Below are positions 13,678 to 48,378 of a stretch of DNA of 64,000 nucleotides, one piece after another. Positions within the stretch are counted from its first letter, which is position 1; each line of letters begins with the position of its first letter. Under the pieces are notes generated by a model. That model searched no databases. It was not told the DNA's origin and saw only the letters and a list, made by a program, of their open reading frames with translations. A program made the position numbers and the translations under genes. Source of the DNA: Dipteris shenzhenensis (lineage: Eukaryota); the NCBI GenBank assembly GCA_047967505.1, contig CM106538.1. One strand, 5' to 3'.

Positions 13678-14577
13678 ATGGCCCAGTCCGCAAGACTGCG
13701 AATCCCACCATTCAGCGAAAGCGAAAAGTTGGACGGCACTAACTATCCACTCTGGAAGTTCAAGATGAAGACCATCCTAAGCGCATATGAGCTTTGGGAT
13801 ACTGCTACTGGGGTGGACGTGAAGCCGGTTACAAGACCGAATCCAGCTAATGCAGGACAACAGATAGTACCAACTGTGGATCAGATTCTCACATGGACAA
13901 GAAGAAATGCAGATGTGCTATGTTCTATTGTTTGCGGTGTAAGTGATTCTGTCATGGCGTTAATTCAACATGTCACCACACCGAAGGAGGCATGGACGGT
14001 CTTGAAAAATCAGTATGAGACCACGAAGCACACGTGGATTTAGAATCTGGAGTCAACTCGCGAACGAGAAATTGTCTGAGTCTGAAACGGCAGAGAAGTT
14101 CATCACCAGAGTGAAGAATCTGTGCGATCAGATGACTACGATTGGCATCACCATCACTAGTGAGCACGAAGGTGCATACGGATTCTCCCACCAAAGTACG
14201 ACGGTCTTGTTATAGCACTGAATACGCAGAACAGAAATCCGCCCCTCAACTTTGAGGATTTTAGCGCAATGCTTCTGGAGGAGATGCGTCAAAAGATGAG
14301 GACTGGAGAAGATTCGGCTTTCTTGGCTGGATCAAAGAAAGGTAAGGGTAAGGACTATGGTAACCCATCTTCTTCTGATAATAAAAAGAGAAAGAAGAAG
14401 ATCAAGTGCTTCTATTGCAACAAGGCAGGGCACAAGCACAATGAGTGCCAAAAGAAGATTGCAGATGAGAAGAATGGAGTAAAGAAAGAGTCCAGCAACA
14501 GCGCGCAGGCAGTACCAATAGAGCTGTTTGTAGCAATTGAGGACATTTGCACGGAGGCAGTTCATGTACTTGCAGAT
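13678..14577 (+). pseudogene. gag: Copia gag (stops/frameshift), cut by the DNA transposon
   Basis: KLDGTNYPLWKFKMKTILSAYELWD; knuckle CFYCNKAGHKHNEC. Confidence 0.92.
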
Positions 14578-14603
14578 AACACCTATTTCATTAATTTTGG
14601 ACT
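14578..14603 (+). repeat. Left TIR AACACCTATTTCATTAATTTTGGACT
   Basis: Exact reverse complement of 42311-42336. Confidence 0.97.
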
Positions 14604-19000: not shown

Positions 19001-19536
19001 TCTCATATTCTTGCCTACCTCATAGTAGGGATCACATAAGGATGTTATGTTATCAACCATACCATCATCAGTGACTTTTAGAATCCTCATCTGTGCAAAT
19101 GACCATTGCTCCACTTGTTCAAATCCCAATACTTCACCTTCTGCTACAATCTTATTTGCAAATGATCTCATTTGTAAAATGTCCCCTATAGTAAAATCCA
19201 AGGTGGTGCTGTTTGTATTCTTGATAATGTCTGTTGCATAAGTCTCATCTTTGTCCCATGCTATAAATGATTTATTGGATGTATTGTAGGGCATAACATC
19301 TCCAAGTGTTTCCATATCTCCACATTTATACTTTAGCTCAACATGTGCGCTAAGAATCTTTGATACAGTAACTGCTACCTTATCTTCGCCAAGTCTTCGA
19401 AAGTGGCAAAGTGAATTGGGATCACTATCATGGATTGTAGCAAATGCAACTACTTCTCTTTTGCTACATAAAATCACATCCATCCCTAGAACAAAATCTA
19501 TAGCCATCTCCTTTGTGAGAGTCCTTCGCAAGCAAG
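16041..19536 (-). CDS. Sola1-like DDD transposase with one frameshift near 16490
   Basis: ORF 16460-19531: KMSKCNVC..H, LIVDGMDQ, LRIQADNCWQENKN, FLYVGHTHEDIDQVF. It continues in ORF 16041-16493 (FVVVRP..FWVAKV..VWYEP). A CTGCAG acceptor at 19537 precedes the ORF and the first ATG is at 19507. Confidence 0.85.
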
Positions 19537-19632
19537 CTGCAGTGGCAACAATTACATAAATATTAGTCTCTTTTTAATAATCTACTTATTTATTATAATT
19601 TTTAATTAGTACTTAATTTATTAGTGGGAGAA

Positions 19633-25600: not shown

Positions 25601-26944
25601 GGATGTGCCTCTTTGACAACATTTTAATAACAACTAGGTTGAGGTATAGGAAAAGTATTATGCCCATCGGATATGCTTTGCATGGTCGATCGAGCATTAA
25701 ATACCATTTTTGCCTTAGTGCCATGCACATCCGTAAAAAAACACGCTGCTAGGTGTGTTATCCGATCAAGCACTTATGCGATGGGAATGCCACTTTGCAT
25801 GTAAGTCAATTCCACCTAGTTGAAGGTGTGTGAAAAGTATCGTGCCCATCGGATATGCTTTGCATGGTCGATCGAGCATTAAATTCTATTTTTGCCTTAG
25901 TGCCATGCACATTCGTAAAAAAACACACTGCTAGGTGTGTTATCTGATCAAGCACTTATGCGATGGGCGTGCCACTTTGTATGTAAGTCAATTACACCTA
26001 GTTGAAGGTGTGTGCAAAGTATCGTGCCCATCGGATATGCTTTGCATTGTCGATCAAGCATAACACACCGTTTTTGCCTTAGTGTCATGCACAACCATAT
26101 AAAAACACGGCCATAGGTGTGTTATTCAAATAAATATTTATCATATGGAGGCTCCACTTTGCACGCAAGTCCGTTTTAACTACGTTGAGGTGCGTGCAAA
26201 GTATTGTCACCATCGGATATGATTTGCATGGTCGATCACGCATTATACATCATTTTTTTCCTAATGACATGCACATTCACAAAAAAACACGCCATTAGGT
26301 GTGTTATCTGACCAAGTACTTATCGGATGGGTGTGCCTCATTGAGAACATTTCAATACCACCTAGGTTGAGGCGTACGAAAAGTTTTGTGCCCATCGGAT
26401 ATCCTTTGCATGGTCTATCGAGCATTAAATACTATTTTTACTCTAGTGTCATGCACATCCGTCAAAAAACACGTTTCTAGGTATGTTATAGGATCAAGCA
26501 CTTATGGGATGGGCATGCCACTTTGCATGTAAGTCGATTCTACCTAGTTGAAGGTGTGTGCAAAGTATTGTGCCCATCAGATATGCTTTGCATTGTCGAT
26601 CAAGCATAAAACACCATTATTGCCTTAGTGTCATGCACAATCGTCAAAAAACACGATCGTAGGTGTATTTTTCAAACAAGTACTTATCGGATGGGGATGC
26701 CACTTTGCACACAAGTCAATACTGCCTAGGTTGAGGAACGTGTAAAGTCTTGTGTCCATTGGATATGCTTTGCATAGTCTGTCTCACATGATACACCATT
26801 TTGTTCCTAGTGTTATGCACAATCGTCATAAAATACATAGGAGGTGTGTTATCCGAACAAGTACTTATGAGATGGGTGCACCACTTTGTATGCAAGTCAA
26901 TAAGACCTAGGTTGAGGAGTGTACAAAGTTTTGTGCCCATTGGA
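19633..26944. repeat. Tandem array of ~40 x 182-bp hairpin-forming monomers with three variant types
   Basis: CCCATCGGATATG-like core recurs every ~182 bp from ~19846 to ~26936; ORF-track offsets of 182, 910 and 1638 bp agree. Confidence 0.97.
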
Positions 26945-27880: not shown

Positions 27881-27944
27881 TGCAAACTTTTTTTTCTAGT
27901 TTCTTTTTTAAAATTTGAAGAGAGAGAAACTAGAGAGAGAAAGG

Positions 27945-30130
27945 TTCAGGGGAGGGGAGGGAGGGGAGGGAGGAGGAAGGGAGGGGAGGAAGAGGGTGGG
28001 ACGGGAGGGAGGAGGAAGGGAGGGGAAGAAGGGGCGAAGAGGGAGGTGGGTGTGAGGGAAGGGGGTGGGAGGGGAGGCTGGCGCGGCGGGTGGGAGGGAA
28101 GCGGGTGGGTGCGGAGGGGGGCTGAGAGGAGTAGGGGGGAGCGGCTGAGAGGGGGAGGGGGGGGCGCGGCTGAGAGGAGGGGGGAGCGGCTGAGAGGGGG
28201 AGGGAGGCGGGGCGGGGCGCGGCTGAGAGGGGGAGGGAGGCGGGGCGCGGCTGAGGGGGGGAGGGGGGGGAGGCGCGGCTGAGAGGGGGAGGGGGGGGGC
28301 GCGGCTGAGGGGGGGAGGGGGGGGAGGGTGAAGAGGGGGGGCTGGCGGCCGCGGCTGCCAGCCCGGGAGGGTGGGGGAGCGGCTAGGGGGGGCGCGGCTG
28401 AGGGGGGGGGGGGAGGGTGAAGAGGGGGGGCTGGCCGCCAGCCCGGGAGGGTGGGGGAGCGGCTGAGGGGGGAAGGGGGGGTGGGGGAGGGCTTGCGATG
28501 GGGGAGGGGTTGCGAAAGGGGGGGGGGGGGGGGTGAAGAGGGGGGGGCTGGGTGAGAGGAGGGGGGGGGGGCTGGCGGGAGGGTGGGTTGCGAAGGGGAG
28601 GGGAGCGTGGGTTGCGAAAGGGGGGGGGAGAGTGAAGAGAGGGGGGCTGGGTGAGAGGAGGGGGGGGGGCTGGCGGCCGCGGCCGCCAGCCAGGGAGGGT
28701 GGGTTGCGAAGGGGGGGGGAGCGTGGGTTGCGAAAGGGGGGGGGAAGAGTGAAGAGAGGGGGGCTGGGTGAGAGGAGGGGGCGGGGGGGGCTGGCGGCCG
28801 CAGCCGCCAGCCCAGGGAGAGAGGAGAGGGGGTTGCGAAGGGGTTGGTGGGTGAGAGGAGAGGGGAGGGGTTGGGTGAGAGGAGGGGGGGGGGGGGCTGG
28901 CGGCCGCGGCCGCCAGCCAGGGAGGGTGGTGAAGGGGGGGATGGGTGGGTCGCGAAGGGGGGGGGGGGAGGGTGAAGACCCCCCTGGGTGAGAGGAGGGG
29001 GGGGGGCTGGCGGCCGCGGCCGCCAGCCAGGGAGGGTGAAGGGGGGGGATGGGTGGGTTGCGAAGGGGGGGCGGGAGTGTGAAGGGGGGGGGGCTGGGTG
29101 AGAGGAGGGGGGGGGGGGCTGGCGGCCGCGGCCGCCAGCCCAGGGAGAGAGGAAGGAGAGGGGGGGGGCTGGGTGAGAGGGGGGGGGGGGCTGGCGGCCG
29201 CGGCCGCCAGCCAGGGAGCGTGAAGGGGGGGGATGGGTGGGTTGCGAAGGGGGGGGGGAGGGTGAAGAGGGGGGGGGCTGGGTGAGAGGAGGGGGGGGGG
29301 GGCTGGCGGCTACGGCCGCCAGCCCAGGGAGAGAGGAGAGGGGGGGGGCTGGGTGAGAGGAGGGGGGAGAGAGGAGAGGGGGGGGGGTGGCGGCCGCGGC
29401 CGCCAACCAGGGAGGGTGAAGGGGGGGGGGATGGGTGGGTTGCGAAGGGGGGGCGGGAGGGTGAAGAGGGGGGGTGGGTGAGAGGAGGGGGGGGGGGCTG
29501 GCGACCGCGGCCGCCAGCCCAGGGAGAGAGGAGAGGGGGTTGCGAAGGGGCTGGGTGAGAGGAGAGGGGGGGGCCTGGCGGCCGCGGCGGCCAGCCAGGG
29601 AGGGTGAAGGGGAGGATGGGTTGCGAAGGGGGGGGAAGGTGAAGAGGGGGGGGTTGGGTGGTGAGAGGAGGGGGGGGGGGCTGGCGGCCGCGGCCGCCAG
29701 CCCAGGGAGGGTGAAGGGGGGGGGATGGGTGAGAGGAGGGGGGGGGGCTGGCGGCCGCGGCCGCCAGCCCAGGGAGAGAGGGAGGGTGAAGGGGGGGGGG
29801 ATGGGTGGATTGCGAAGGGGGGGTGGATTGCGGAGGGGGGGGCTGGGTGAGAGGAGGGGGGTGTCGCCAAGGAGGGAGGGAGGGAGGGGGGGCCAAAGGG
29901 AGAGTGGGGAAGAGGGTGGAAGGGTTGGGGGGGTCGCCAAGGGGGGTGGGGAAAAGGGAGGAAGGTTAAAAGGGGGTAGGGGGAAAAAGGGGTAGGGGAG
30001 GAAGAGGTTAGGCGACGGGAGAGGGGAAGGGTAGCGGGAGGGGAGGGGGGAGGGGGAGGGGGATTTTGGGGAAGGAGGGGGGGCGAGGGGAAGGGAGGAG
30101 TTTTGGCGGCGGAGGGAGGGGAGGGAAGGA
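27945..30130. repeat. Extremely G-rich minisatellite with recurring GC palindromes
   Basis: Long G runs, GGGTGAGAGGAG, GGGTTGCGAAGG and GGCTGGCGGCCGCGGCCGCCAGCC modules. Confidence 0.93.
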
Positions 30131-30839
30131 GGTTGGAGGAGAGGATTGGGTCGAGGGATGGATGGAGGGAAGGAGAGGAGAGAGAGGAGAGAGAGAGAAG
30201 GAGAGAGAGAGAGGAATGAAAAGGACTTACGAGAATGAAAAGGACTTACATGAAAAGGACTTACGAGAATGAAAAGGACTTACGAGAATCGAGAAGAATG
30301 TTGAAAAAAGTATCAAGAAGAATGTTGAACATAAATTTGAATTCAAAAGGAACGTATAAGAAGAAAGTATAAGAATGTTGAACACAAATTTGAATTCAAA
30401 TTTATAATGAATTCAAATTTCCCTCTCTTTTTTGAAAATTCAAATTTATGTGTAGGAGTGGACTAGTTTTAACTCTCTCCTCGTTTCATTGAAGCAACCA
30501 AGAGCGGAAGAGAAAGGATAAGCCGAGCCTTACTTTTTTCACTTTTTCCAGGTACTTGCATTCTTTTTTATTGTCTTGTAATTCTATTTCTTTACTTACA
30601 ATTCTTTTCAATTAGTTTCTTGTTAAGGTTTTTGAGTTCTATTTCTTAAAATTCGTATTGTAATTCTTTTTCTTTACTTATAATTCTTTTTCAATTAGTT
30701 TATTCTTAAAGTTTTTGAGGAGGGTGGTCTTTTAGAAGGCATTACAATTCTTTTTAAATTAGTTTCTTATTTGAGTTTTTGAGTTCTATTTTAATTAGTT
30801 TTTTATTTATATTTGAGTTTGTAAATTTGAGAAATGGGA

Positions 30840-31253
30840 GAATAGGGAGGGAGGGAAAGAGAGAAATTAAGAGAGAGAAGAGAGGCTCCTTAAGAGAGGG
30901 AGAGAGAGAGAGAGATTCACACAGAGAAGAGGGGCTCCTTAAATGAGAGAGAAGAGTAGGGAGGGAAAGAAAGAGAGAGGAGAGAGGCGGAGAGAGATTA
31001 AGAGAGAGAAGCTGGTAAAGAGAGAGGAGAGAGGGGGAGAGAGATTAAGAGAGAGAAGCGGGTCTCTTGGGGGCCGTGGCTACTTGAGGGAGGGAGAGAG
31101 TAGGGAGAGAGAGGGAGAGAGAAAGAGAGAGAGGGAGAGAGAGAAAGAGAGAGAGGGAGAGAGAGAGAAAGTTTATGGGAATGAAACGTGGCGAGAGGAG
31201 AGAGGAAAAGAGAGAGAGAGAGAAGAGAAGAGGGAGACTTAGGGAGAGAGAGG

Positions 31254-31319
<66 letters not shown>

Positions 31320-31843
31320 TGAAACTTCTGTGCTAGAGGGAGGGAGAGGAAGAGAGAGAATAAGTGGGATGAGGATAGAGAGAAAAATACTTAAGAGTTG
31401 TCAAAGAGAGAGAGAGAGAGATTAAGAGAGAGAATGAGGTGTCTTGACTATGGCTACAAGGAGATTTAGGAGGAGAGAGAGAGAGAGAGAGAGAAAGTAA
31501 AGAGAGTTTTATATATTTACATCTTTTATATTATATTTTTAAATGAGAGAGAAGAGTAGGGAGGGAAAGAAAGAGAGAGGAGAGAGAGGGAGAGAGATTA
31601 AGAGAGAGAAGCCGGTCTCTTGGGGACCTTGGCTTCTCTTGGGGACCGTGGCTCCTTGAGGGAGGGAGAGAGTAGGGAGAGAGAGGGAGAGAGAGAGAAA
31701 GAGAGAGAGGGAGAGAGAAAGAGAGAGAGGGAGAGAGAGGGAGAGAGAGAGAGGAATGAAAAATACTTAAGAGTTATAGAGAGAGAGAGAGAGATTAAGA
31801 GAGAGAATGAGGTGTCTTGACTATGGCTACAAAGAGATTTAGG

Positions 31844-31878
<35 letters not shown>

Positions 31879-31920
31879 TAAAGAGAGTTTTATATATTTA
31901 CATATTTTATATTATACTTT
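30840..31920. repeat. GA-rich microsatellite block with an internal duplication (600-bp offset)
   Basis: AAATGAGAGAGAAGAGTAGGGAGGGAAAG at 30941 and 31541; downstream segments are shared. Confidence 0.85.
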
Positions 31921-32349
31921 TAAAAAATTATAAAAGAGTGAATTTATGGTTTGTTTTGAAGGTGAGATAATGTTTTTATATATATTCATCTTTTAAATTG
32001 AAAAATGTTAACTTTTCTTTAGATACTTGTTCTTTATTTATATCACATGCAGGTTTAGCCTCTACATCACAACCCCTTCTTTTGCATATTTAAGCCTCTT
32101 AAACCCCAGCACATTAAAATGAACACAGAAAAAGAAATTATTTATTGCTTTTCTTCGCTTCGACGGTTGGTTTAGCATAGTTTAGCATAGATTAGATTGC
32201 CTTAGACGAGAGACAATTCTCCAAGTTGCCAATCGAAGCCATGCTCAAATTTTTCTAACTAGTTCCTAATCGTTGTCAGTCCCTTCGCTCACATGCGGTT
32301 TAACACTCATAACATGCTATTAAATAAGACCTTTTACCATTTACCAAGA

Positions 32350-32960
32350 AGTTTATCAGTGGGCAGATTGCATGAGCAGATATCAGTGGACAGATTGCAT
32401 GAGCAGATATCAGTGGACAGATTGCATATATCAGTGGGGACAGATTACATGTCATGGGACATATTGGAGCTTGATGATTATTGGTTATTTTTATTGCATT
32501 TGTATAAATATTTAAGCTCATTTATTGTCATAAAAATCCTTGTAAAGCCTTTTATGCTATTTTTTACATTTATTGTCATATGAAGCGCCTTGTAATAAAC
32601 CCGACCATCCCGACCATTCACTAATTAACGAGTATCAGTGGGATGCATAAGTGGATATCATGTGGGCTGCATAAGTGGATATCAGTGGAACAGTTTTTAG
32701 TGGATAGATTGCACCAGTTGGGTATCAGTGCTCAGATATCAATGGATGGACAGATTACATGAATCTTCACGAAGATTGAAGCTTTATTACTAGACGACAT
32801 TTTATATTACTTGTAAAGCTTTATTGGCATTCTTTTACATTTGTACAAATATTTAAGCCTTGTAAAGCCTTTTAGGCTATTTCCCACATTTATTGCCATA
32901 TAAAGCCTTGTAAAGCCTTTTGGGCTATTTTCCACATTTATTGTATCAAGGGTTGTATAT
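32350..32960. repeat. Short repeats (27-bp ATATCAGTGGACAGATTGCATGAGCAG; TTGTAAAGCCTTTT)
   Basis: Directly visible tandem and near-tandem copies. Confidence 0.75.
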
Positions 32961-33012
32961 TGTACTTTACTTGTATGTATCTAAATTCTTCATTATCTTT
33001 TCTTGTAGGATT

Positions 33013-36000
33013 ATGGAGCAATCAGCTAATGTGATGGCTATGCTAGATGACTCTGAGATCAGAGAATGGGTTTCTGATGTCACTTTGAATTTCAAAGGAA
33101 AGGAATATAGCCCCAATGGCTTTGGTAGGTGGACTCGATATCACATGGGTAGAAGAGCCTGGTTTCTTTATCAAAAGGAAAAGAGACTCTTTCTACTTAT
33201 GTCAAAAAGGGAGTTCAATGGTGTTGAAGATCCATGGGATGCTACTTTCTTCAAAAAAGATATGACTTCAAGCCTTGTAGTAGGCATAATAATTCAGCGA
33301 AAAGACACCTTTGTGGATATTTTAACAAAGAGTTCAGATCCTGAAGTTGGCGGTATGCATTTTATTGTGTCAAGGAGAGACGCAAAGACCTTTGTGATGC
33401 CTCCTCCTCAACCATCAAAGTTTCCAGAGTTGCAAAGGGCATTGGAGACTCTTTCATATACTTGGGAGCAATTTCCTAGTGTGGTGGCAAAAAGGATGCA
33501 TGCAAAGATAATGTTTGAATACTTTAAGGATGCAGAATATGCTCTCCATATGCAAGAATCATCACATGAAGGAGATCAAAAAGCTCAGACTTCAATGCAG
33601 GGACAAGAAGAACAGGCACACTGTCACAAACCTGTAGAACATGAGCGCAAACTTCTAGAGCAAGAAATGGTGAATGTAACTAAGGATGATGAAAAACAAG
33701 CCTTGAGTGCACGGGAATTAGCAAAAATTGAAGAAGATCAAGGTCGATCCACTGCAGTTATGCTAGAAGCTCTTGCTAGCAAACCACGACGTGAAATGCA
33801 AAAGGCTAGTACTGCAAGAGCCACGGTTCCAAGCAGTAAGAAAAGACATCGTCCCACTGTAGAGAAAGATAATGTGGATGAAAAACGGTCAAAAAAAGAG
33901 AAAGATGAAGAAGACTCAGAATCCGAGGCTGAAGATGATCAAGATGAACTCACATCAATTAAAAATCTTAATCTACGTCTTAATGAAGCAGTTACAGATG
34001 ATGATGTGGGATATATCTGGGGTCAAAGGACGTGTTTGTGAATGCCAAAGATGTGGAAGCTGCAGCTCTGTTTACTAATAGCCGAAGCCTTGATATATCC
34101 TATGCAATGCAAATATACGAGGCTTTGAGAGATGGTAAGAAACCTGTGGCAAGTAATGTGGTCTTGCACCCAATAATGTTTTGTCCAACCAAAAATAGTT
34201 TTCTGGATCAAATAACATTTACAGGGCCTACACATTTCGAGGAGATCTTCAGTCAATTCTTTAAAAACACTCTAAAAAATATTCCACATGAACAAGGCGA
34301 AGAGGCACAAGGAGAGAATATGCTAAAGGAAGTCAAGAAGGAATTTCTCCTTCATTGCAGATTCCAACCCATTGATGGTCAACATTGGGCTTATGCTTGT
34401 AATCAGATCGCAAGGGAAGCAAAGGAGGGCAAAAGACTCACTCCAGAACAATTTGTAAAGATAAGCTCATTCCATTATTATCCTGCAACGATCTGTATAT
34501 TCAAGCATGAGATTAAGTATTTGATTGAGTCCGAAAGACTTAATCATTATGTCCATGGAAAGCGTAAGATATCCTCAACATCAGAGGTCTTACAGAAGGC
34601 AAGGGTGATATGGACAACATTTGGTTCCCCAAATCCTGATTTGAAGCGAAAGGTCACAAAAGCAGACGCCGACACACTCACAAACTTTTATACTTCTTTG
34701 AGTGCAGTTGTGCCTAGGGGAACCCAAGAGCGGGAAGAAAGTATGACAAGCCTCAAGGTGGTGAGGGACAGATATGCCGACTATACTTCTATCATATTTC
34801 GTCCTGTTGAAGTGTTCAATGAGATGCTTGAAACGTGCATTGCTTGTGAGCGTGGACAGCTGACCTATGAAGCTCCTTTGTTTATCTCCGGCAAGTCAAA
34901 GGTAATGGATAAGAAGGAGTTGACGGCAAGGATGTGGAGGCCTGTAAAGTACTTACCTGATAAGTATGCATCCATGGCAGCACAAAGAATTTTAAAGAAA
35001 GAATGGTTTTTTGGAAAAAAAGACAAAGACCACTGCATGGAAGAATGCATCAATGTACAGGTGAGGCGTGATGCAGTGCATAGTGCCATCAAGTATTTGC
35101 TGTCAGAGAAACAAATTCCACTTACTCATTGCAACATTGACTATAATGTGGTGAAGCATATAGCTTCTTTGTCAACACCCAAGGTAAAGCTATGGGCCAA
35201 CAGGTGGATTAAAAAGGATGAAGATGGGTCGGAAATAGTAACCTCTTATATGAGAAAAGAGATCCCACAACAGGTGGTTGCATATATGGAAAGATTAATC
35301 AGCGAGATAAGAATGCCGACAGATATGCACCAAAGCTTTCAATTCAATGTAGAGGTTACGGCAGAGTCTGGAAAGCTTGTCAACTTCAGGGGAGTCTCAG
35401 AAGATGACTTCTTTAAGAATGAGTCAGCATGGGATAAGCCACAACTATTCTTTATCAATGAAGTTTCTAGCGATGATATCCATAACTTCATTGATAGAAT
35501 AGTATATACCACCATTAGCAAAGTGGCGATTTGTAACATTGTCATATTTGTTGATAAAAAAGACAAAGAAGCCATGCAGGTTACTCTAGAGCGAGCATAT
35601 TCATCAAATTTGAAGATCTATAGTGGTGTTTATGCAGCAAAGAGAGGCAAGAGAGAATGTGGCATAGCGATTCAAACTCTTGAATCATTCTTTCTATGTA
35701 TGCGGAGTCCCAACCCTGATCACTCTTTACAAAAGAACATAAGAGGGAATTCAAATAATTTGAGATTGATGCTAGAAGAGCAAGATATTCCCAGGTCCAT
35801 ACATTATCAAAAAAACAACTACGGAAGTCCTGCAAAAAGTGGGAGTCTCTTGCTTACCATGATGGAGAATTTGCTGCCGGCAGGTTGGGAGGTCACCTTG
35901 TGCAGGATGGGATATTTATTTGAGGATCTCCTAAGAAAAGGCAACTCCACCAATATTATTGAAAATAAGCATTTCATGGCCTATTTCCAGCTTCAAGCAG

Positions 36001-39000
36001 ATCTAACCACAGGCTATGAAAAAGAGATAGACCACAAGGACACCGATGACATGGATGATTACCTTGAAGATCATAATGTCCCAGTTGTTGATGATGAAAA
36101 GATGGACTTACATGACCCATTCACAGAGAGGTTGGTGGATGAAGACAAATATGATGATGCCCTCTTTGATAATTATGGCTCGCAGGGTTATGAAAAAAGG
36201 CCACTACGACAATACTTAGCGGTATGAACTCTCTATTTCTCAACTAAATACAATTTTTTAAATAAGATTTAAATTTAAAGATAATGAATCTAATCTCTCA
36301 TATTTGTTTACAGGCAATAGAGGGAGAAGAAATGGATGAAGTCAATACGGAGGCACTCCCTTCTATTTCAACAATGCAACCACCTCTAAATTTGATTGAA
36401 AAATCAAATTTAGCTGCATTAGATAAAATGGAGAGCTCATTTCAAGTTAAGATCGTTTTGAAACGAGAACCTCAGTATTTAAGCTTTGGTAGAGAGGAGG
36501 TTTCAATCCTCTCCAATCCTTTAAAAGAGGTTAATGACAATGTTATCTTGGCCATTCTCAGGTAATGTTTATTTATTTATTGCTACTTCAATAAGCTAAC
36601 ATTTGTTTATTTATTCACAGTTCAGTTATATATCAGTTTCCTAGTGCAGAATGCAAATCAATTCTATGAGCTAATGTTTGTTTATTTCTTGGTGCAGTGT
36701 AGTTATTTCTCAACAGTGCAGCATCGTGTCTACATGCTCGATGCTCTCCTTTCTTCTATTCTTAGCTCTCCTCAAAAGACTATAGAAGATGTTTGTACCT
36801 GGTTAAGCCCTTTGAATTTAGATGGGGTGCAAGTCATCTTAATGCCTTATCATGAGGCGTAAGTATCAACACTAACCTTATTTTTACTATTTCTTTGGCA
36901 AGTTTGTGTAAAACAATAATCATTTTTATTCTGGTCGTGTAGCTCACATTGGAGTCTGATCTTCTGGGACCTTGAACTCAACCATTTATGGTTTGTGAAT
37001 TCAATAGAAGGCTATCATGCCAACTCCCCAAGGTAATTATTCTCTTAATATTTTTGATACTTTCTTATTTTGTATCTTATGATCATGACATATTAATATA
37101 TTTCATATGTCATGCTGGACAGTGCTGCATATCGGCTAGTATCTGCTGTCAGAACAACCACGGAGCAACAAGATCAAGTAGAATTCAAAAGACGTCTGCC
37201 AGTGGAGCAAAAAGATGGACACAGCTATGGGTGGAGAGTCGCCTACAACTGCATGTTGTTTCTTAGAGAGATTTTTGATCTGGAGTTACCAGTCAAAATG
37301 GAATCATATACAGAAGCTGATCTGCTAGCATTTCGGGCTGAGAGTATTCAGCATCTAATTACTACCATTGGGAAACAACATGAAAATATGACTACATTGC
37401 AGCATGTATAAAACCTTATCTTTATACTTGTATACTTGTTCCAGCCTTTAATTGGGATGTATAAATCTCATAACTTTTTTATATTTTCTTCCAAAAGGAG
37501 AAGAGAATGAGTTTAATGAAAGCATGCTATCTTTATACTTTTATAATTATTTAAACCATTAATTTTATTTGGGATGTATAAATCTCATAACTTGTCTAAT
37601 GAAAGCATGCTATCTTTATACTTCTATGATTATTTAAACCATTATTTTTATTTGGGATGTGTAAATCTCATAACTTTTTAAATTTTTCATCCAAGAGAAG
37701 GAGAGACTCACTCTAATGAAAGCGTGTATGAAACCTTTTTAAATTTTTGCTCCAAGCAGAGGAAAGACTTACACTAATGAAAGCATGTATGAAACCTTAT
37801 CTGCTTGTTTAAGCCTTTATTTGGGATGTGTACATCGCATAACTTTTTTATATTTTTATGGCAGAAGGAGGATGTGGAAGACATAGCAAGTAAAGAAGAA
37901 TACGATGTAGACTACTCCCTCAATAAGATGAGTCATAAAAATATGAATCTATTGGAGCAGATTGGAAGTTCATTCACTGCTATGTTGTTAATTCGACAAC
38001 AACCTCATTTTTTTGAATTTGGTGAAGAAGAGATTTCAATCCTCTTGAATCCTAAGAATGAGGTTAATGTCAAAGTCATTACAACCATCCTCAGGTTTGA
38101 TGCAGCCTTTTCCTTGGCTTTATACTTTGCTTATTTTGATTAAACCCAAGAAGCTAATACTTTTTTTTTTAATATAGCAATGTTATAGCAAATTTTTCGC
38201 AAAATATACAAAGCGTTTCATATATGCTCGATCCTCGTATTTCGGAAGTGCTTAGCAACAAAGAAGAAACCATAGAGAATGTTTGCAAGTGGTTGAAGCA
38301 CATTCCTATGAATGACGCACGAGTTATTTTTACAGCATATTATGAGAAGTAAGCATCAAACCCTACTTGTTTTTTCTATTGCATTGCTAGAATTGTCTCA
38401 AACACAGTAATTATTCTTTATTGATAATGCAACTCACATTGGAGTCTGGTAGTCGTGGACATCCTTGCGAAGAAGTGCTTCTTTGCAAACTCAATGACAT
38501 CCGTCCATGGCAATGTGTTAGAGTAAGTATAGACTACACTTGTTGTCACTTCTTGACATGTAGATTGATATGCAATGCACATATTCACTGTTGTTATATG
38601 TTTTGATATGCAGATTAGCTCGAAAATTAGTAGATGCTATCGGCATAGTAATGCGGCAATGTGACTTGGCACAACAAATAGAGTATATAACATGTCAGGT
38701 ATCACATCAAGATAATAGCCACATCTATAATTGTGGATGGAGGGTGGGCTACAATTGCTTTTTGGTACTTGGTCAAATTTTTGAGATGCAAAATGACACC
38801 ACACTATCAACATATACGGATTTGCATCTCTATGCATTTATAACATGTACCATTCGAGCAATCATTGATTGCGAAATGAATGCCATCAAAGAGTCAAAGA
38901 GGATAGATGACCTCAACTCTACAAACATGGCCTCATTAAAAGAATTGGGAAGCTCTTTTAATGTTAGGGTTATGATTCAACATAGACCTCAGTATCTTGA

Positions 39001-40221
39001 ATTTGGGGGAGAAGAGATTTCAATTCTCTCTAGAGCTTCAAATGAGGTCAATAACAACGTTATGATGGCCATTCTCAGGTTTGATACAAACTTTTTCTCT
39101 ACTTGATAATTCAATATTTTGATTTAATCTAATAAGCTAATAAGCTAATATTCATTTATTTTGATTAAATCTAATAAGCTAATATTCATTTATTTGTTGG
39201 TGCAGTATAGTTATCTCACGATTTGGTAGAGTCGTACAAAATCGTGCGTATATGTTGGATTCCCTCCTTTCTCCTATACTTAGCGATAGCAGAAAGACAA
39301 TAGCCGATGTTTGTAAATTATTACAGCCTTTACATTTACATGGCGTGCGAGTCCTATTTATGGCATATCATGAGATGTAAGTATCATGGCAACCTTTATT
39401 TTCATCTTGTACTGGCAACATTGTGTTAAATAATAATGGTTCTTAGTTATTCGTGTAGGGAACATTGGAGTCTGGTGGTTTGGAACCTTGAAGACAACTA
39501 TTGTTGGTTTGTTAACTCCATTGCAGGCTTTCATGGCTCAGTGCAAACGTAAGTATTCTATTAATCTGTTGTTACTTCTATATTATGTACCTTATGTGAT
39601 AGATACACTAAGTTTTTTTAATATGTCACGATGAGCAGGTCAATTGAGAAGTTGGTATCTGCTATCAGAGAAACAGGACAGTACAAAGACTCGGTAGACT
39701 TCCAAAAGCGTTTAGTAGTAGAGCAGGAAGATGGGCATAGTTGTGGGTGGAGAGTTGCCTACAACTGCATGTTGATTTTCAAAGAAATTTTCTCACTTAT
39801 GCCACAGATCTCATCGGAAGACTCTTTAGAGCTCAAATATTCAGAGGAGGATATACAATTGTTTAGGGCTGAAATCATTCGAGACCTAATTGCTGCCATT
39901 AGAATACAACGTGCAACTGAAGCAATACCAGAGCTTCCCTTTAAGGAAGAGGAGACTGAGTTTACTATGAAAGCACTGCATACTACAGAAGAAGTAGAGA
40001 CCCAATGTACACCTACAGCACCACAGCCTCCACTGGAAGCATCAGAAGAGTTGCCACCGCCTCCACTTGCATTTAAGGAAGAGGATACTGAGTCTACTCC
40101 GAAAGCACTACATACTACAAAAGAAGTAGAGACCGAGTGTACATCTACAGTACCACAGCCTCCATTGGAAGCATCCGAAGAGTTGCCAGAGTCTCCACTA
40201 GAAGCATCACAAGAGTTGTGA
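33013..40221 (+). pseudogene. Multi-exon transposon cargo gene: ParB/DGQHR-like + methyltransferase-like + 3 x Ulp1/C48-like protease; several disabling lesions
   Basis: ATG at 33013 after a TTGTAG acceptor; frameshift ~34002-34040; phase-0 GT-AG intron 36222-36313 joins the 731-aa ORF to the protease exons; repeated exon pattern; stop at 40219-40221. Confidence 0.75.
36314..39900 (+). CDS. Three tandem spliced Ulp1/SENP-like (peptidase C48) modules
   Basis: HWSL at 36947, 38437 and 39463, each followed by F.NS and then Q.D..(S/N)(C/Y)GWRV.YN (37226 Tyr, 38732 Cys, 39742 Cys). Confidence 0.8.
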
Positions 40222-40319
40222 TGCATGTATGATGTTGTGTTTGTAGTTTTTGTTGATTATACACCAATTTGTGACTTATTACTTAAGTGGCATAATCATG
40301 ATATTTATATAATTTCTTT

Positions 40320-41330
40320 ATGCACACAATTTTATGATATGAATGTGTGATGATGTGATTATTTGGAAATAAATCCTTGTGTGATGAGAATTCTGATATG
40401 AATATGTGATGATGTAATATTTGTAATATATTTATTTCATGCACACAATTTTATGATATGAATGTGTGATGATGTGATTATTTGAAAATAAATCCTTGTG
40501 TGATGAGAATTTTGATATGAATATGTGATGATGTAATATTTGTAATATATTTCTTCATGCACACAATTTTAGGATATGAATGTGTGATGATGTGATTATT
40601 TGGAAATAAATCCTTGTGTGATGAGAATTTTATTCAGTTGGACAGTCTCCACTCACTTAAAGTAGAGCATTCGCAATGCTTCTCTCACTTTATTCCAACC
40701 CTTATCCTTATCATCTCCACTCACTTAAAGTAGAGCATTCAATCTCCACTCGCTTTATTCCAACCCTTATCATAGTGAACACATCGTGCCACTCACTTTA
40801 TTCCAACCCTTATCCTTATCGTAGTGAACACATCGTGCCTTAGTGCACTTGTATTCTTCCATCCTAGTCTTTCCACAAACACTCTCTTATTTCTTACATC
40901 CTAGTCCTTCTGAGTAACTTGTATTCTTCTATCCTAGTCCTTCCGCAAACACTCTCAGAGTCTTCTTTCATCCATCCTGATAACCAAGTATTCTTCTATC
41001 CTAGTTCTTCCACAAACACTCTCTTCTTTCATCCATCCTAGTGCTTCTCATTAACTTGTATTCTTCTTGTATTCTTCTATCCTAGTCCTTCCGCAAACAC
41101 TCTCAGAGTCTTCTTTCATCCATCCTGATAACCAAGTATTCTTCTATCCTAGTTCTTCTGCAGACACTCTCTTCTTTCTTGCATCCTAGTGCTTCTCATT
41201 AACTTGTATTCTTCTATCCTAGTCCTTCCGCAAACACTCTCAGAGTCTTCTTTCATCCATCTTGATAACCAAGTATTCTTCTATCCTAGTTCTTCCTCCG
41301 CAGACACTCTCTTCTTTCTTGCATCGTAGT
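40320..41330. repeat. Right-side tandem repeats: 3 x ~118 bp, then nested GTATTCTTCTATCCTAGT units
   Basis: TGCACACAATTTTA.GATATGAATGTGTGATG at ~40321, ~40440 and ~40558; repeated TATTCTTCTATCCTAGT..CAAACACTCTC at 40850-41330. Confidence 0.85.
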
Positions 41331-41829: not shown

Positions 41830-42030
41830 ACTGTATTAAGGTGTTTTTTGACACCATATGGCTTTGTATTAAGGTGTTTTTTGACACCATATGGCCTTGT
41901 ATTAAGGTGTTTTTTGACACCATATGGCTTTGAGTAATATGAGATTCTACTTCTTGTACAAATGTGATGTTAAGATGATGTTAAGAGAGACTGTATTAAG
42001 GTGTTTTTTGGCACCATATGGCTTTGAGTA
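41830..42030. repeat. ~36-bp subterminal repeats TGTATTAAGGTGTTTTTTGACACCATATGGC
   Basis: Three adjacent copies plus a fourth at ~41992. Confidence 0.88.
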
Positions 42031-42310
42031 ATATGATCTACTTCTTTACAAATGTGATGTGCTCTTTTTGAAATGTACTCTAGTTTTCATAACATGTCAC
42101 GCCATTTTTTCTAATTTGATTTTTTAAAATCTTACTTTTTTGTCTCTTTTAACAATGTGATGTACTCTATTTTTAACATCTCACGTCATTTTTTCTAATT
42201 TGATTTTTTAAAATCTTCCTTTTTGACTCAATGTTTTGTTTTATAAGAGCCTCTTTTTTTGAAATGTTTTATCCAGAATTATCTCACAAAATGAATTTGG
42301 ACAGTGCAAG

Positions 42311-42336
42311 AGTCCAAAATTAATGAAATAGGTGTT
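42311..42336 (-). repeat. Right TIR
   Basis: AGTCCAAAATTAATGAAATAGGTGTT followed by AGAT. Confidence 0.97.
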
Positions 42337-44443
42337 AGATGAACCTTGGATTATTGACAGCAGTGGTGCATCGTGCCACATGACCGGTCGTAAGGATTGG
42401 TATACCTCTCTACATCCGGTAGGGAATGACATCCTGGTAGCAGCCGGCAATGATGCAAAATGTCTAGCAAAAGGAAAAGGTATGATTGCTCTCAAGTCAG
42501 ATGGAGTTGTAAAACAGTTGTCCGATGTTCTTTATGTGCCAGATATCAAGAGGAACTTGTTGTCCATTTCTACGATCACGGATCGGGACCTCAAAGTTCA
42601 CTTCGATAAGAATGGCGCACAGATTTTGGATCTTCAAGGGAAGGTCATTGGTAAAGGTACACAACGCAACAACATCTACGAACTCTCAGTTTTCAGTGCT
42701 CAAGCCGATGTGAGCAACACTAAGCTGTGGCATGAGAGGTTTGGTAATCTAAACCATAGTTCTTTAAAGGAGATGCATAAAAGTGGGATGATTGCAGACC
42801 TACCTGAAATTATAGATCAACCCGATGTATGTGAAGCTTGCATGATGGACAAGTAGCATCGGCAGCCCTTTCCTAAAGAGGCCAGTAGGGCAAAGGCTCC
42901 TCTAGAGCTCGTTCACATGGACCTCTGTGGAAAGATGGAGACGGAAGCTTTGGGTGGTTCCTACTACTTCATGACCTAATCGATGACTACAGTAGAAGGA
43001 TATGGATATACTTCCTGAAGACTAAAGATGAGGCTTTTAGTAAGTTCAAAGAATGGCATGTAATGGTCGAGAAAGAAACGGGGAGGAAGGTGAAGAAGTT
43101 GAGATCAGACAGAGGTCGTGAGTTCACCTCAAGTGAATTCAAAAGTTACTGCAAAAGTCACGGGATCAAGAGGCAGAAACCCTAGCAAAATGGAGTAGCA
43201 GAGCGCAAGATGCGCGTCATCTACGAAATGGGTAGGAGTATGATGAAAGGGAAAGATTTGCCAAAGACTTTCTGGGCTCAAGCATGTAACACGGCAGTTT
43301 ACATTCTGAATCGTAGCTACACGAAGGCTGTGAACGGGATGACTCAAACTGAAGAAGGCACTTTACGGGCTGAAACAGGCCCCACGAGCATGGTACCAGC
43401 GAATTGATGCCTACTTTCTGCAAAACGGGTTCAAGAGGAGCCCATCTGATGCAAATTTGTATATCTACAGAGAAGGAGGCAGTTGTATGATCGTGGTCCT
43501 TTATGTGGACGACCTTGTAATAACAGGGAACCATGAAGAAAAGATATCGCAGACAAAGCAGTTGCTATGAAGAGAGTTTGAAATGACAGACCTCGGACTC
43601 ATGCATTTCTGTTTGGGGATTGAAGTTTGGCAAGAGCCAAAACAGATCTTCATCTCACAGCTGAAGTATGCTAGAGAGATACTGAAGGCATTTGGCATCG
43701 CTGAGTGCAAGACACTTGGCACCCCTATGGAGGTTGACGTGAAGCTCTCAAATGAGGATTCATCACCACTGGTGGACGAAGTGAAGTACAGAAGGCTTGT
43801 GGGCAGTTTGATTTACTTGTGTAACACGCAGCTGGACATCAGTTTTGCGACCAGTGTACTAAGCAGGTTTTCTAATAAGCCCTGGGAGAACCATTGGAGG
43901 GCAGGGATGCGGGTGCTGAAATACATCAAAGGCACATTTGATTATGGCATCACCTATACCAAGGGCAACATCTTGACCGGATTATGTTACTCGGATTGGG
44001 CAAGAGATGTGGACAGCAGGAGATCAGTGACAGGTTACTATTTCTCACTTAGATCTGGAGCTGTGTCATGGGTCAGCAAGAAGCAACCTACAGTTGCTCT
44101 TTCTTCTACCGAGGCTGAGTACAAGTCAGCATGTTTTGCTTCTTGTGAGGCAGTGTGGTTAAGGAGGATTTTAGGGGACATGGGTGCAGTGCAGAACAAG
44201 CCTACGCAGTTATCATGTGACAATCAGAGTTGCATGGCAATTGCCAAGAACCCGGTGTACCACGCTCGCACAAAACACATTGAGATTCAATATCACATTG
44301 TACGCGAGCTCATCATGGATGGAGAGGTCGACTTAGTGTACTGTCCGACTACAGAGAATGCTGCGGACATCTTCACGAAGGCTCTTGGAAGAGACTTGCT
44401 GGAGAGGCATCTTCATCGACTTAGCATTGGGTCGAAAAAGTAG
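42337..44443 (+). pseudogene. pol: Copia pol (protease, integrase, deleted IN-RT junction, RT, RNase H)
   Basis: WIIDSSGASCHMT, LWHERFG..CEAC, LELVHMDLCG, LKKALYGLKQAPRAWY, YVDDL, SKKQPTVALSSTEAEY, ADIFTKAL. Confidence 0.95.
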
Positions 44444-45327: not shown

Positions 45328-45843
45328 CTCTGAAGAAGAGTCAACATATTGTCCAATAGGAAAAATGCATTTTCAAAAATTTTTAAAATGCCTGATTTCT
45401 GCTTTGCCCAATTTGAAGCATTACCAAAGGGCAGGCCAAAAATAGATCTCAGCGGGCAAAGGCCCTTTGCCTGTGATCTAAAACACACACACACCCCTTC
45501 CACTAAAGCACCGTGAGATTAAGGCCGTTGGCCTTTGAACGTGTTAAGAAGAATGTTGAGTTGAATGTCTTAACGTGTAAACTTTGAACAGTTCAACAAA
45601 CCGAATATTCTTGGAGCGATGGGGAAACACTTTTATTAGCCTATAGTTTTATTTCTGGTGTCGCATTGGTTCCAATAGATAATGCTCGTCGTCATCGTTC
45701 CTCGAGTCCTTTGATCTTTGCCTCTTTCGTACGCATCTCCAGCCCTTCTCACCTCATAGCTTCACTTACTCTCCGGGCACACTCGACAATCACTTGGTTG
45801 AGTCCTAGAGCTTCAATCTCGGAGTTTCTTCTCAGTCTGTTCT

Positions 45844-48378
45844 ATGATGTTTCCTCCTTGCCCAGTTAGGCTCCTGTGGCTTTTATTTTTGGCTCTGCTG
45901 CATCATGTCTGCTCCGGTCAAACTGCTTTACAATCTCGCGTGAAGCTTAATTTCAGTTACACCATGGCGCCATCGGATTATGCACAGGATGCTTTGGAGA
46001 ACCTTCTACAATCTCCGAACGGTACGTTTCAGCTTCAGTTTGGGACGCTGCCCGGCCAATCCAATCCGCATAGCGTGGGGATTGTACATACTCGATCCGC
46101 TACTCTTGTGTGGTACACTTACCGGGTCAGTACTAATCCCGGCCAGTACGATAACTTGGGCGGTAGTTATACTTCGCTATCTCTGAGGCAGGATGGAAAT
46201 CTTGTGATTACGGTGGAAGGCAAGGGTGTAGATGTTTTGGTTTGGAACAGCGGCACTACAGATCAAGGCGTGCAAGCCATGGAACTGCGGGAGGAAGGGA
46301 ACTTAGTTTTGTTGAACGCCTCCGGGGGAATTGTCTGGCAGTCTTTCGATCATCCCACCGACACTCTGCTTCCTAATCAGCGGCTTCTTCCTGGGATGAC
46401 TCTAGTGGTGTCTGCCCGCAATCGATACCCATCCGTCGGAACAAACATTCTGAGACTGGAGCAGCACCGACTGGTTGCCTATGCGGACTATGTGGAGCAG
46501 GAGCCGTATTGGCAGCTTCACTTTCCTGACAATCGTCAAGTTGCATATGCTGCCATTGTGAACGGAAGCATCTCTCTTTTCGACAATAATGCAAACATAG
46601 TAAGTCACGCAGGCAACACTAGCAATAGTCCCGCCCCAAGTGCGCTGCAGCGTTTCATCATCGCTGATGACGGTAACATGCGGCTCTTCGAGTACATCAA
46701 TGCGAGCAACTCGTGGGCTCAGCAGTTACAGGTCATCCAGGAAGCATGCGCTCTACCAGACGACTGTGGATTCTACGGCCTCTGTGTTCCCGGCCAGGCT
46801 TGCGCCTGTCCTCCCACCTTCAATCTTCTGGTCACACTGAACGGCTGCGTCCCTCCCCGTGGCCTGGTTTGCAACAGTCCTCACGGTAATGACTTTGTCA
46901 AAGTTCCCTACGCTTCTTACTTTGCTCTGCCTCTATCATCGCCCCCAAATCTCAGTTTTAAGCAGTGCCAAAGTCTCTGCACGAGCAATTGTTCCTGCCT
47001 GGGCTTCTTCTATGCTGCGAATGGATCGTGTCTGGTTACACATCAGATGCGCACCTTCAGTGCGTCTGTGTATGGGAACTACACCCAACAGTATGCTTAC
47101 GATCTGTATGTAAAAGTACAGGGAAAGCCGCGGTCTCCGCTAGCGATAATCCTGGGGGTATGCATACCCGTAGTGGTGATTGTTTTCTGTTTACTACTAT
47201 GGCGGTTTGTGAGGTACAACGTGAAGGTAGCGCACGTGGAGGAGGAAGAATTCTTGCTGGGGGCATTACCGGGGCTACCACCGAGGTATTCATACAGGGA
47301 GCTGAAGGCGGCGACGAGGGGGTTCAGCGAGAGGATAGGGGGGGGATCGTTCGGGTCGGTGTACGGGGGGGAGCTGGGGGATGGGACGAGGGTGGCGGTG
47401 AAGCAATTGGAGGGGGCGATGCAGGGGAAGAAGGAGTTCCATGCCGAAGTAGCGACGATAGGGACGGTGAGGCATTTGAATCTGGTGAGGCTGAGGGGGT
47501 TCTGTTTGGAGGGGAAGCACAGGCTGCTGGTGTATGAGCACATGGACAGAGGATCACTGGACGGATTGTTGTTCAAGGAAGGCGGAGGAAGTGACGGACT
47601 TTCATGGACGGAGAGGGTGGCCGTGGCCGTCGGAGTTGCGAGAGGATTGACGTACTTGCACGAAGGTAGCCCCGATTGTATCATCCATTGCGACGTGAAG
47701 CCCGAAAACATCTTGGTCGATGCTGACGGAAATGCCAAACTGTCGGACTTCGGGCTGGCGAAGCTCATGAGCCGCCGGCAGCAGACTTCGTTCGAGACCA
47801 ACGTACGCGGCACCCGCGGATACCTCGCGCCGGAATGGCTCACCGGACGGCACCCGATCACCGAAAGGGCCGACGTATACAGCTACGGCGTGGTTCTCTT
47901 GGAAATATTATCAGGACGACGGAACTACGACGGTTCCGTCGAGTCCAGCCGGAGTTATCTGCCGGAATGGGCGCTGCGCAGCGCCGGAGATGGCTCCCGG
48001 GTGCCGGAAATTCTCGATACGACGCTCGTTCTCGACGCCAACGACGACCTCCTCGCCGACGCTCAGCGTCTCCTGCTCGTCGCCCTCTGGTGCCTGCAAG
48101 AGGACCCCGCCTCTCGCCCCGCCATGAGCCGTGTCGTCCGCATGCTCGAAGGCGACCTCGCTATCTCCGTCCCGCCTCCTCCTCCCTCCCCGCCCTTCGA
48201 CGACGACTCCTTCGCCGGCTCTTCGCCCTTCCAGATCGATGCTTCTCGGCCAGCCGGTGCTCGCCTCACCACCAGCGAAGTCACCCTCCCCTTCCTCCGC
48301 CGTGCCTCCCGCTTCTTCTCCTCCTCCTCTTCCTCGTCCAAATCTGCCGTCCCCTATCATGCCTCCACTGCATTCTGA
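45844..48378 (+). CDS. G-type lectin S-domain receptor-like Ser/Thr kinase (SD-2-like, non-RD), intronless
   Basis: Signal peptide; B-lectin (LRQDGNLV, GNLVL..WQSFDHPTDTLLP); EGF-like CALPDDCGFYGLC; PAN CQSLCTSNCSC; TM helix; kinase GGGSFGSVY, VAVK, HCDVKPEN, DFG, GTRGYLAPEW. Confidence 0.96.
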   Translation: MMFPPCPVRLLWLLFLALLHHVCSGQTALQSRVKLNFSYTMAPSDYAQDALENLLQSPNGTFQLQFGTLPGQSNPHSVGIVHTRSATLVWYTYRVSTNPGQYDNLGGSYTSLSLRQDGNLVITVEGKGVDVLVWNSGTTDQGVQAMELREEGNLVLLNASGGIVWQSFDHPTDTLLPNQRLLPGMTLVVSARNRYPSVGTNILRLEQHRLVAYADYVEQEPYWQLHFPDNRQVAYAAIVNGSISLFDNNANIVSHAGNTSNSPAPSALQRFIIADDGNMRLFEYINASNSWAQQLQVIQEACALPDDCGFYGLCVPGQACACPPTFNLLVTLNGCVPPRGLVCNSPHGNDFVKVPYASYFALPLSSPPNLSFKQCQSLCTSNCSCLGFFYAANGSCLVTHQMRTFSASVYGNYTQQYAYDLYVKVQGKPRSPLAIILGVCIPVVVIVFCLLLWRFVRYNVKVAHVEEEEFLLGALPGLPPRYSYRELKAATRGFSERIGGGSFGSVYGGELGDGTRVAVKQLEGAMQGKKEFHAEVATIGTVRHLNLVRLRGFCLEGKHRLLVYEHMDRGSLDGLLFKEGGGSDGLSWTERVAVAVGVARGLTYLHEGSPDCIIHCDVKPENILVDADGNAKLSDFGLAKLMSRRQQTSFETNVRGTRGYLAPEWLTGRHPITERADVYSYGVVLLEILSGRRNYDGSVESSRSYLPEWALRSAGDGSRVPEILDTTLVLDANDDLLADAQRLLLVALWCLQEDPASRPAMSRVVRMLEGDLAISVPPPPPSPPFDDDSFAGSSPFQIDASRPAGARLTTSEVTLPFLRRASRFFSSSSSSSKSAVPYHASTAF

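Follow-up and report, generated by a model that had tools for sequence, protein, structure and literature searches.

A candidate deSUMOylase-like gene with three divergent clan-CE modules in a 27.8-kb cut-and-paste transposon of Dipteris shenzhenensis

The window analyzed here is a 64,000-nt stretch of Dipteris shenzhenensis DNA (GCA_047967505.1, contig CM106538.1; one strand). It contains a 27.8-kb cut-and-paste transposon that encodes a transposase-like protein and, on the opposite strand, a second gene, with many exons (33013-40221), which is our subject. We favor, with somewhat better than even confidence, the reading that this second, non-transposase gene combines an orphan front half with three clan-CE modules, and that its product is deSUMOylase-like. 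The features of the element and the gene are listed in Table 1.

Transposon setting and exon structure

The transposon is bounded by terminal inverted repeats (TIRs). The 27-nt terminus occurs twice in the whole window at up to 3 mismatches, with 0 occurrences expected by chance. Removing 14577-42339 yields one continuous Ty1-copia gag-pol frame of 310 codons that passes through the zinc knuckle into the protease region, so the target duplication is GA, or GAT if the T is shared. The interior holds, in order, subterminal repeats, an open reading frame (ORF) of the DUF7869 family, a satellite, G-rich/GA-rich simple sequence, the gene studied and further tandem repeats.

The DUF7869 ORF has D..D..E-like motifs, recognized by eye, and PF25273 was found in all 37 relatives listed for it, whose sources include coral and protists. 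The occurrence of this protein inside a bounded, TIR-flanked, target-duplicating insertion makes a transposase role likely for the DUF7869 Pfam family. The ORF is likely the DDE transposase of a transposon group that has no name in the literature searched; a full-text literature search returned no paper that mentions DUF7869. A second minus-strand ORF (16041-16520) overlaps it and may be the last exon of the same gene.

Much of the remaining interior is repetitive. A 7-kb satellite (19800-26800) comprises ~38 copies of a 182-bp unit with 60-98% identity between copies. It is followed by ~4 kb of simple sequence (27900-31900), in which ~2.4 kb at 76% GC with a strong G skew and many copies of the 26-nt palindrome GGGCTGGCGGCCGCGGCCGCCAGCCC precede a GA-rich microsatellite of ~1.6 kb. 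The long ‘ORFs’ in this stretch are Pro/Ser-rich artefacts of the repeats. Short tandem repeat arrays lie on either side of the gene within the element (32340-32750, 40307-40662, 40851-41296 and 41832-42046) and may be subterminal binding-site arrays or promoter/terminator regions.

The model of the second gene, extended by eye and by script, comprises 12 coding segments separated by 11 introns. Its longest ORF spans 740 aa from stop to stop (34005-36227), or 731 aa when counted from the first GTG. A sequence-only reading of this region had placed the end of the 731-aa ORF at GCG/GTATGA (36221) and its resumption at 36314 in phase 0, and both coordinates and phase were borne out. The last exon base is 36221 (...TTAGCG/gtatgaac), with an in-frame TGA at 36225-36227, and the frame resumes after the pyrimidine-rich acceptor catatttgtttacag/GCAATA. 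The segment 34026-36221 is 2196 nt long, that is, 732 codons. The same reading held that the introns of the first protease module keep frame; all three (36562-36702, 36859-36942 and 37033-37122) are GT..AG and do so.

When the 12 segments are joined (34026-40221), they form 4773 nt or 1590 codons with the terminal TGA as the sole stop; the two alternative frames are interrupted 102 and 126 times. Within the module part (2577 nt), the counts are 1 stop in frame and 60 and 59 in the other frames. Base shuffles of this part (2000) averaged 56.9 stops and never had fewer than 33; the openness of the spliced frame is therefore far beyond chance. GT..AG borders occur in 10 of the 11 introns. The introns have 27.4% GC and are full of stops, and the exons have 40.2% GC. 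The earlier description of the locus as a cargo gene was upheld by the open spliced frame together with the boundaries of the element: 33013-40221 is a multi-exon coding gene inside a TIR transposon, a setting that is well supported. One of its introns (37406-37864, 459 nt, between modules 1 and 2) carries an 80-nt repeat in triplicate, with starts at 37447, 37647 and 37816; the last copy overlaps the acceptor and first codons of module 2.

Upstream of the long ORF, the first coding stretch has 0 stops in frame versus 19 and 34 in the other frames. No Pfam family matched it at E<=10 and no homologue aligns there. It lies in a different frame from 34023-36221, so the gene from 33013 is not one open frame here. 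Either this copy has gained or lost one nucleotide at the frame change, or the homopolymer was misassembled. Homologues of the front half align from 34029 onward only, in the second frame. A G-Y-I/V-W-G motif stands just upstream of the frame change, in the first frame, and the same motif is present in homologues P0007 and P0015. An intron joining the two front ORFs was considered and ruled out, because homology to P0008 and P0015 begins at 34029-34038 and leaves no space for one.

Read through the 11 introns and the one frame change, the gene would encode a protein of ~1,927 residues. The predicted order is an unassigned N-terminal region that includes a charged linker, the core bearing the TNxR and DGQH motifs, three Ulp1/SENP-type modules and an acidic repeated tail.

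The junction at 36221/36314 could instead mark the border between two genes, an arrangement that we regard as unlikely. In that case the 34005-36227 ORF would stop at TGA 36225-36227, one codon past the proposed donor, and the modules would form a transcription unit of their own that starts from an ATG in 36314-36340; exon A of module 1 does have an in-frame Met soon after the acceptor. The long homologues P0005 and P0015, which carry neither a protease-like part nor a Pfam family, are consistent with this arrangement. However, the stop and the Met are only ~100 nt apart, so that a terminator and a promoter would hardly fit between them. The gap is also rich in A and T, opens with GT and closes with a pyrimidine-rich ..ttacag acceptor in phase 0, and 10 further introns of this style follow downstream. 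Judged from the sequence, a single spliced mRNA that joins the front half to the protease modules is plausible; the join is based solely on the phase-0 GT/AG pair 92 nt apart.

The three protease-like modules

The back half of the predicted protein consists of three modules of ~250 residues. They share the same four-exon layout (exons A-D), and the intron positions are identical in all three. One uninterrupted ORF (38564-39106) carries module 2 into module 3 with no intron between them, so at least these two belong to one reading frame. Module 3 is the sole module with His, Gln and Cys together and shows HW followed by Q-x5-C-G in family order (His codon 39463-39465, Cys codon 39742-39744). 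Module 1 has a Tyr codon (37226-37228) where modules 2 and 3 have Cys. In module 2, the intron before the His exon (38433-38522) ends in AA, not AG, and two additional residues lie between Gln and Cys.

The likeness of the modules to known proteases emerged from a combined profile. All three introns of module 1 are multiples of three in length, so the module could be read through with its 7 stops set as X. This read-through was aligned with exon pieces of modules 2 and 3 (profile A6) and searched against 177,635 PDB sequences. At E<=10, the profile matched 10 chains, and all 10 are clan-CE Ulp1-type proteases. SENP8/NEDP1 led with E-values of 0.0012 (21.3 bits) and 0.0027, and ChlaDUB1, ChlaDUB2 and a relative followed at 0.16-1.1. 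In the alignment to SENP8, the SHWSL of the module falls on SHWSL, VNS falls on YDS 17 residues further on, and Q-E-D-G-H-S-(C/Y)-G falls on Q-Q-N-S-Y-D-C-G. We take the aligned SENP8 positions to be His102, Asp119 and Cys163 of NEDP1. In this respect the triple deSUMOylase-like domains of the sequence-only reading found support, as the three repeats resemble Ulp1/SENP proteases both in their profile matches and in the aligned catalytic positions.

Several observations weigh against this assignment. The best PDB E-value is no lower than 0.0012. All three modules have Asn-Ser (VNS, ANS and VNS) where SENP8 has Asp-Ser, and they thus fail one defining C48 feature, the Asp being replaced by Asn. 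The Cys is absent from module 1 and the His-exon acceptor from module 2. No Pfam family, PF02902 included, matched the 8 ORF pieces (E<=1) or the module 1 read-through (E<=10), and the read-through as a single sequence had no match in the PDB either. Profiles of single exons searched against the PDB retrieved no protease, only chance matches (E 0.68-1.5). In a word-index search, 0 of 113 candidates were homologous to the modules when exon D was the query, and 0 of 2720 when the three-ORF module alignment was used.

The AlphaFold model of the module 1 read-through is poor (mean pLDDT 51.5, pTM 0.28), and Foldseek returned no match at E<=0.001. Among the 42 Foldseek rows listed for this low-confidence model, 8 belong to ChlaDUB1, NEDP1 or Ulp1. 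VIA gave its best Z-score (5.0) to an unrelated chain, and NEDP1 scored 2.4. In the fold check that had been proposed for the modules, clan-CE structures are thus among the listed rows, none of them at a significant level. On the strength of the profile alignment, we conclude that the modules are probably very divergent clan-CE (C48-like) domains, with cleavage of SUMO, NEDD8 or ubiquitin conjugates as their putative activity.

The modules would be old, divergent tandem copies of clan-CE cysteine-protease domains, each split into four exons. Amino-acid identity is 51% between modules 1 and 3, 35% between 1 and 2, and 39% between 2 and 3. The proportion of nonsynonymous differences (pN) lies below that of synonymous differences (pS), with 0.30 versus 0.53 for modules 1 and 3. 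The synonymous substitution rate (dS) between modules is 0.9-1.2, near saturation, and the ratio of nonsynonymous to synonymous rates (dN/dS) is 0.42-0.58. A further point against the favored reading is that two of the three intron classes (60-70% alike) match the exon similarity between modules (46-69%), which indicates that the coding constraint is modest to moderate.

These figures bear on the possibility that the present copy is a decaying pseudogene of a family that once worked, with open frames that are the remnant of a fairly recent insertion and no full-length protein. We rate this as a serious contender, not far short of an even chance. The frame change means that the gene is not a single ORF in this copy. 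In module 2, the acceptor ahead of the His exon reads AA instead of AG, module 1 has Tyr for Cys, and introns B-C and C-D equal the exons in their conservation between modules; all of these point the same way. A large satellite and long simple-sequence tracts within the element likewise recall old or bloated copies. Against decay, the modules are old duplicates by their dS, yet their 859 codons lack an internal stop where ~57 would be expected, and pN remains below pS. The two TIRs still agree at all 27 positions, and the target duplication is undamaged. The frame change falls in a homopolymer, a common site of assembly error. The Tyr of module 1 and the defect of module 2 could be long-standing, with module 3 alone catalytic. 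Given the frame change, the lost acceptor in module 2 and the Cys to Tyr replacement in module 1, this copy is probably no longer fully functional.

The front half and the sequence around the gene

The 732-codon core of the front half belongs to a small family. Among 1.84 billion representatives, 13 homologues were found at E<=1e-3, the best at 4e-17. Most are short ORF fragments; the lycophyte Diphasiastrum complanatum contributes a hypothetical protein, and two members from metagenome assemblies, P0005 (1097 aa) and P0015 (1199 aa), are long and intronless. The alpha/beta region of the core is conserved with homologue P0004. No true relative matched a Pfam family. One further candidate, P0011 (1927 aa), is a bacterial FG-GAP/cadherin protein and was rejected as a chance low-complexity match. 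The core family is real but rare, and lineage-restricted.

The motifs of the core were surveyed in an alignment of 15 rows (A1). TN.R occurs in 8 rows (as TNQR in 5 of them; the window has TNSR), D(G/S)QH in 9 and S.R.N in 8. A passage of PMC4619093 describes DGQHR domains of the ParB/Srx fold by a QR pair, DGQHR and FxxxN motifs. The core is possibly a degenerate DNA-binding domain of this DGQHR/ParB-Srx type, without the signature Arg. That DGQH is followed by W, F, I or V rather than Arg in every motif-bearing row speaks against such an assignment. So does the outcome of the family searches, in which ParB_N (PF02195), DndB (PF14072) and TIGR03187 (Pfam/NCBIfam) gave no match at E<=10 in the window protein or the 15 rows. 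PDB searches with profiles A1 and A7 likewise yielded chance matches only and no ParB, Srx or DndB chain.

Structure prediction added little. The AlphaFold model of the core (mean pLDDT 45.6) is too poor to test the fold, and on this low-confidence model neither Foldseek (PDB, BFVD) nor a wide VIA search gave a clear match. A Dnd complex chain appeared at Foldseek rank 14 (E=0.39). The fold-search rows included no ParB, methyltransferase or DUF3723 structure, which for low-confidence models is uninformative either way.

The sequence-only reading had called this region ParB-like and methyltransferase-like. For the first term, the TNxR and DGQH motif pair stands, and the signature Arg and any family model at E<=10 are missing; a ParB-like front half is a weak, motif-level hypothesis. 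The methyltransferase-like reading is unsupported. N6/N4 DNA methyltransferase (PF01555) gave no Pfam match, no structure matched, and none of the 15 rows contains motif IV, [DNS]PP[YFWH]. The SAM-binding F.G.G motif is missing from the window protein, and the rows that have it carry it upstream of DGQH. The sole lead in its favor comes from homologue P0005, whose language-model features fell with Streptophyta clusters (0.96) and then with phage ParB_N and N6_N4_Mtase clusters at 0.77-0.78, below threshold. Both neighbors of P0005 at 0.96 are clusters of Streptophyta sequences annotated as ‘hypothetical protein’, represented by proteins of 813 and 1673 aa; the 1673-aa protein might be a fusion of the kind proposed here.

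Alternatively, the front half is neither ParB-like nor methyltransferase-like and has a fold of its own or is a relative of the fungal DUF3723 proteins, which are Starship cargo. This is possible, although we consider it rather doubtful. The language-model features of the window’s 732 residues are nearest to fungal DUF3723 clusters (0.93-0.94, with 153-168 of 256 features shared). The absence of any matching ParB, DndB or methyltransferase model or structure, of motif IV and of the DGQHR Arg would also be explained. On the other side, the DUF3723 lead is weak, since the Atlas recognition value is low (1712) and the shared features stay under the tool’s guide of 170; such matches are rated as leads. 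DUF3723 (PF12520) matched none of the 15 rows at E<=10, P0005 pointed weakly to the phage ParB_N and N6_N4_Mtase clusters, and the TNxR/DGQH pair fits the DGQHR description.

Searches beyond the family were negative. A tblastn of the front half against phages returned 6 records, all of them a 12% stretch under a helicase gene (E 0.3-4). Viral contigs held no match to the front half, and metagenome contigs none to P0018 or the window protein. The literature search found no paper linking DUF3723 with ParB and, among the papers listed, no relevant one joining ULP1, transposon and ParB.

The window as a whole is nuclear DNA of a plant, with Ty3 and Ty1-copia fragments and AT-rich introns. A separate 2.9-kb element (9276-12188) has 211-nt inverted repeats at its borders, with 92% complementarity between them. 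Just beyond the copia element lies an intronless ORF of 858 aa (45802-48378) that encodes a G-type lectin S-receptor-like kinase with B_lectin, S_locus_glycop, PAN and Pkinase domains and appears intact.

Table 1. Positions of the transposon, its transposase-like ORF and the parts of the second gene in the window
Feature	Position	Strand	Details
Host transposon	14577-42337		27,761 bp; bounded by 27-nt TIRs; inserted in a Ty1-copia gag-pol ORF
Left TIR	14577-14603	+	27 nt; perfect inverted match to 42311-42337
DUF7869 ORF	16460-19573	-	1037 aa; Pfam PF25273, E=1.9e-51; presumed DDE-type transposase
First coding stretch	33013-34023	+	337 codons from first ATG; globular start, then charged Lys/Glu-rich linker
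Frame change	34019-34025	+	At GGGG run 34019-34022; ORFs 32914-34041 and 34005-36227 overlap in different frames
Core	34026-36221	+	TNSR (residue 17), DGQHW (117), SERLN (169), helical middle, alpha/beta region, acidic tail
Coding segments 1-6	34026-36221, 36314-36561, 36703-36858, 36943-37032, 37123-37405, 37865-38094	+	
Coding segments 7-12	38178-38348, 38433-38522, 38614-39078, 39206-39376, 39459-39548, 39639-40221	+	
Module 1	36314-37405	+	Exons 36314-36561, 36703-36858, 36943-37032, 37123-37405
Module 2	37865-38896	+	Exons 37865-38094, 38178-38348, 38433-38522, 38614 onward
Module 3	38897-39930	+	Exon shared with module 2 (38614-39078), then 39206-39376, 39459-39548, 39639 onward
C-terminal tail	39934-40221	+	Two 132-nt (44-aa) acidic, Pro-rich repeats, 87% identical; TGA 40219-40221
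Right TIR	42311-42337	-	Flanking GA (or GAT) duplicated

Proposed role and comparison with known systems

We infer that the most likely role of the product is that of an element-encoded SUMO/ubiquitin-like protease brought to DNA or chromatin by its front half. The front half would bind DNA or chromatin, and at the element the modules would strip chromatin or repair proteins of SUMO or another ubiquitin-like modifier. Removal of the modifier would then aid transposition or escape from silencing, as has been proposed for other transposon genes that bear ULP domains. The anti-silencing or tethering role is suggested by analogy to the ULP-bearing VANC/KI genes.

A bolder version seems very unlikely to us at present. 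It holds that the gene is a standard accessory gene of undescribed giant plant DUF7869 transposons, in which a disarmed DGQHR/ParB clamp, maybe akin to DUF3723, tethers a working SUMO-type protease to the element’s own DNA. If this were true, SUMO-dependent silencing or repair marks would be stripped from the DNA of the element. The VANC-KI strategy would then have been invented twice, independently, and giant transposons would be linked across kingdoms.

The closest known parallel to the favored deSUMOylase-like reading comes from plants. According to a passage of PMC13317346, Ulp1 domains occur in KAONASHI (KI)/VANC genes of non-TIR MULE (VANDAL) transposons in Arabidopsis, similar MULE genes are found in melon, rice and grapevine, and the VANC gene family that carries them in VANDALs counteracts epigenetic silencing. 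As far as that account goes, both systems are plant DNA transposons with a non-transposase gene that bears an Ulp1-type protease domain. The element described here differs in its perfect TIRs, its 2-3-bp target duplication and a DUF7869 protein in place of a MURA transposase. It also has three tandem modules rather than one, these are too divergent for Pfam PF02902, and the front half is an unrelated orphan family.

Ginger1 transposases of hydra and other animals carry a C-terminal Ulp1 domain for which a role in transposition or repair was proposed, as described in part of PMC2836005. Here too, an Ulp1 protease domain is encoded by a cut-and-paste transposon. In Ginger1, as portrayed in that part of the paper, the protease is fused to an integrase-like transposase and matches pfam02902, whereas in Dipteris it resides in a separate gene on the opposite strand, 13 kb from the transposase-like ORF.

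Among proteases of known structure, SENP8/NEDP1 (PDB 2bkq, 1xt9), Ulp1 and ChlaDUB1 are the nearest, as all PDB matches of the module profile belong to clan CE; the His, Gln and Cys positions coincide, and the His-to-Asp/Asn spacing is 17 residues in the SENP8 alignment. The modules differ from SENP8 in being only ~20% identical to it (E=0.0012), in having Asn for Asp, and in that the likeness is known from sequence.

The core shares with the DGQHR proteins (DndB; GmrS/DUF262), insofar as a passage of PMC4619093 characterizes them, a QR-type motif followed by DGQH and later by x-x-x-N. It differs in having W, F, I or V for the signature Arg and, in the window, SR rather than QR. It is further set apart by the lack of a PF14072, PF02195 or TIGR03187 match at E<=10 and by being eukaryotic and transposon-borne.

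DUF3723 is described in part of PMC9156397 as a conserved cargo gene, of unknown function, of the fungal Starship giant transposons. The likeness, within that description, is that of a large protein carried by a giant cargo-bearing transposon, and DUF3723 is the nearest language-model neighbor of the core, which we treat as a lead. Starships differ in being moved by a tyrosine recombinase, not a DDE-like enzyme, and DUF3723 sequence models do not match the core. Zisupton transposons, whose name refers to the zinc finger and the SUMO protease domain that they encode, have an 8-bp target duplication and a different transposase.

Ulp1-type proteases have repeatedly been acquired by DNA transposons, among them MULE/VANDAL elements and Ginger1. 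A further independent case in a different type of element would add a data point on why mobile elements recruit SUMO/ubiquitin-like proteases. The gene also offers a concrete protein to test, one whose front half may bind DNA. Set beside the known transposon-borne ULP-like genes, it is a variation on their theme, with another host element, triplicated and extremely divergent modules, and an orphan front half.

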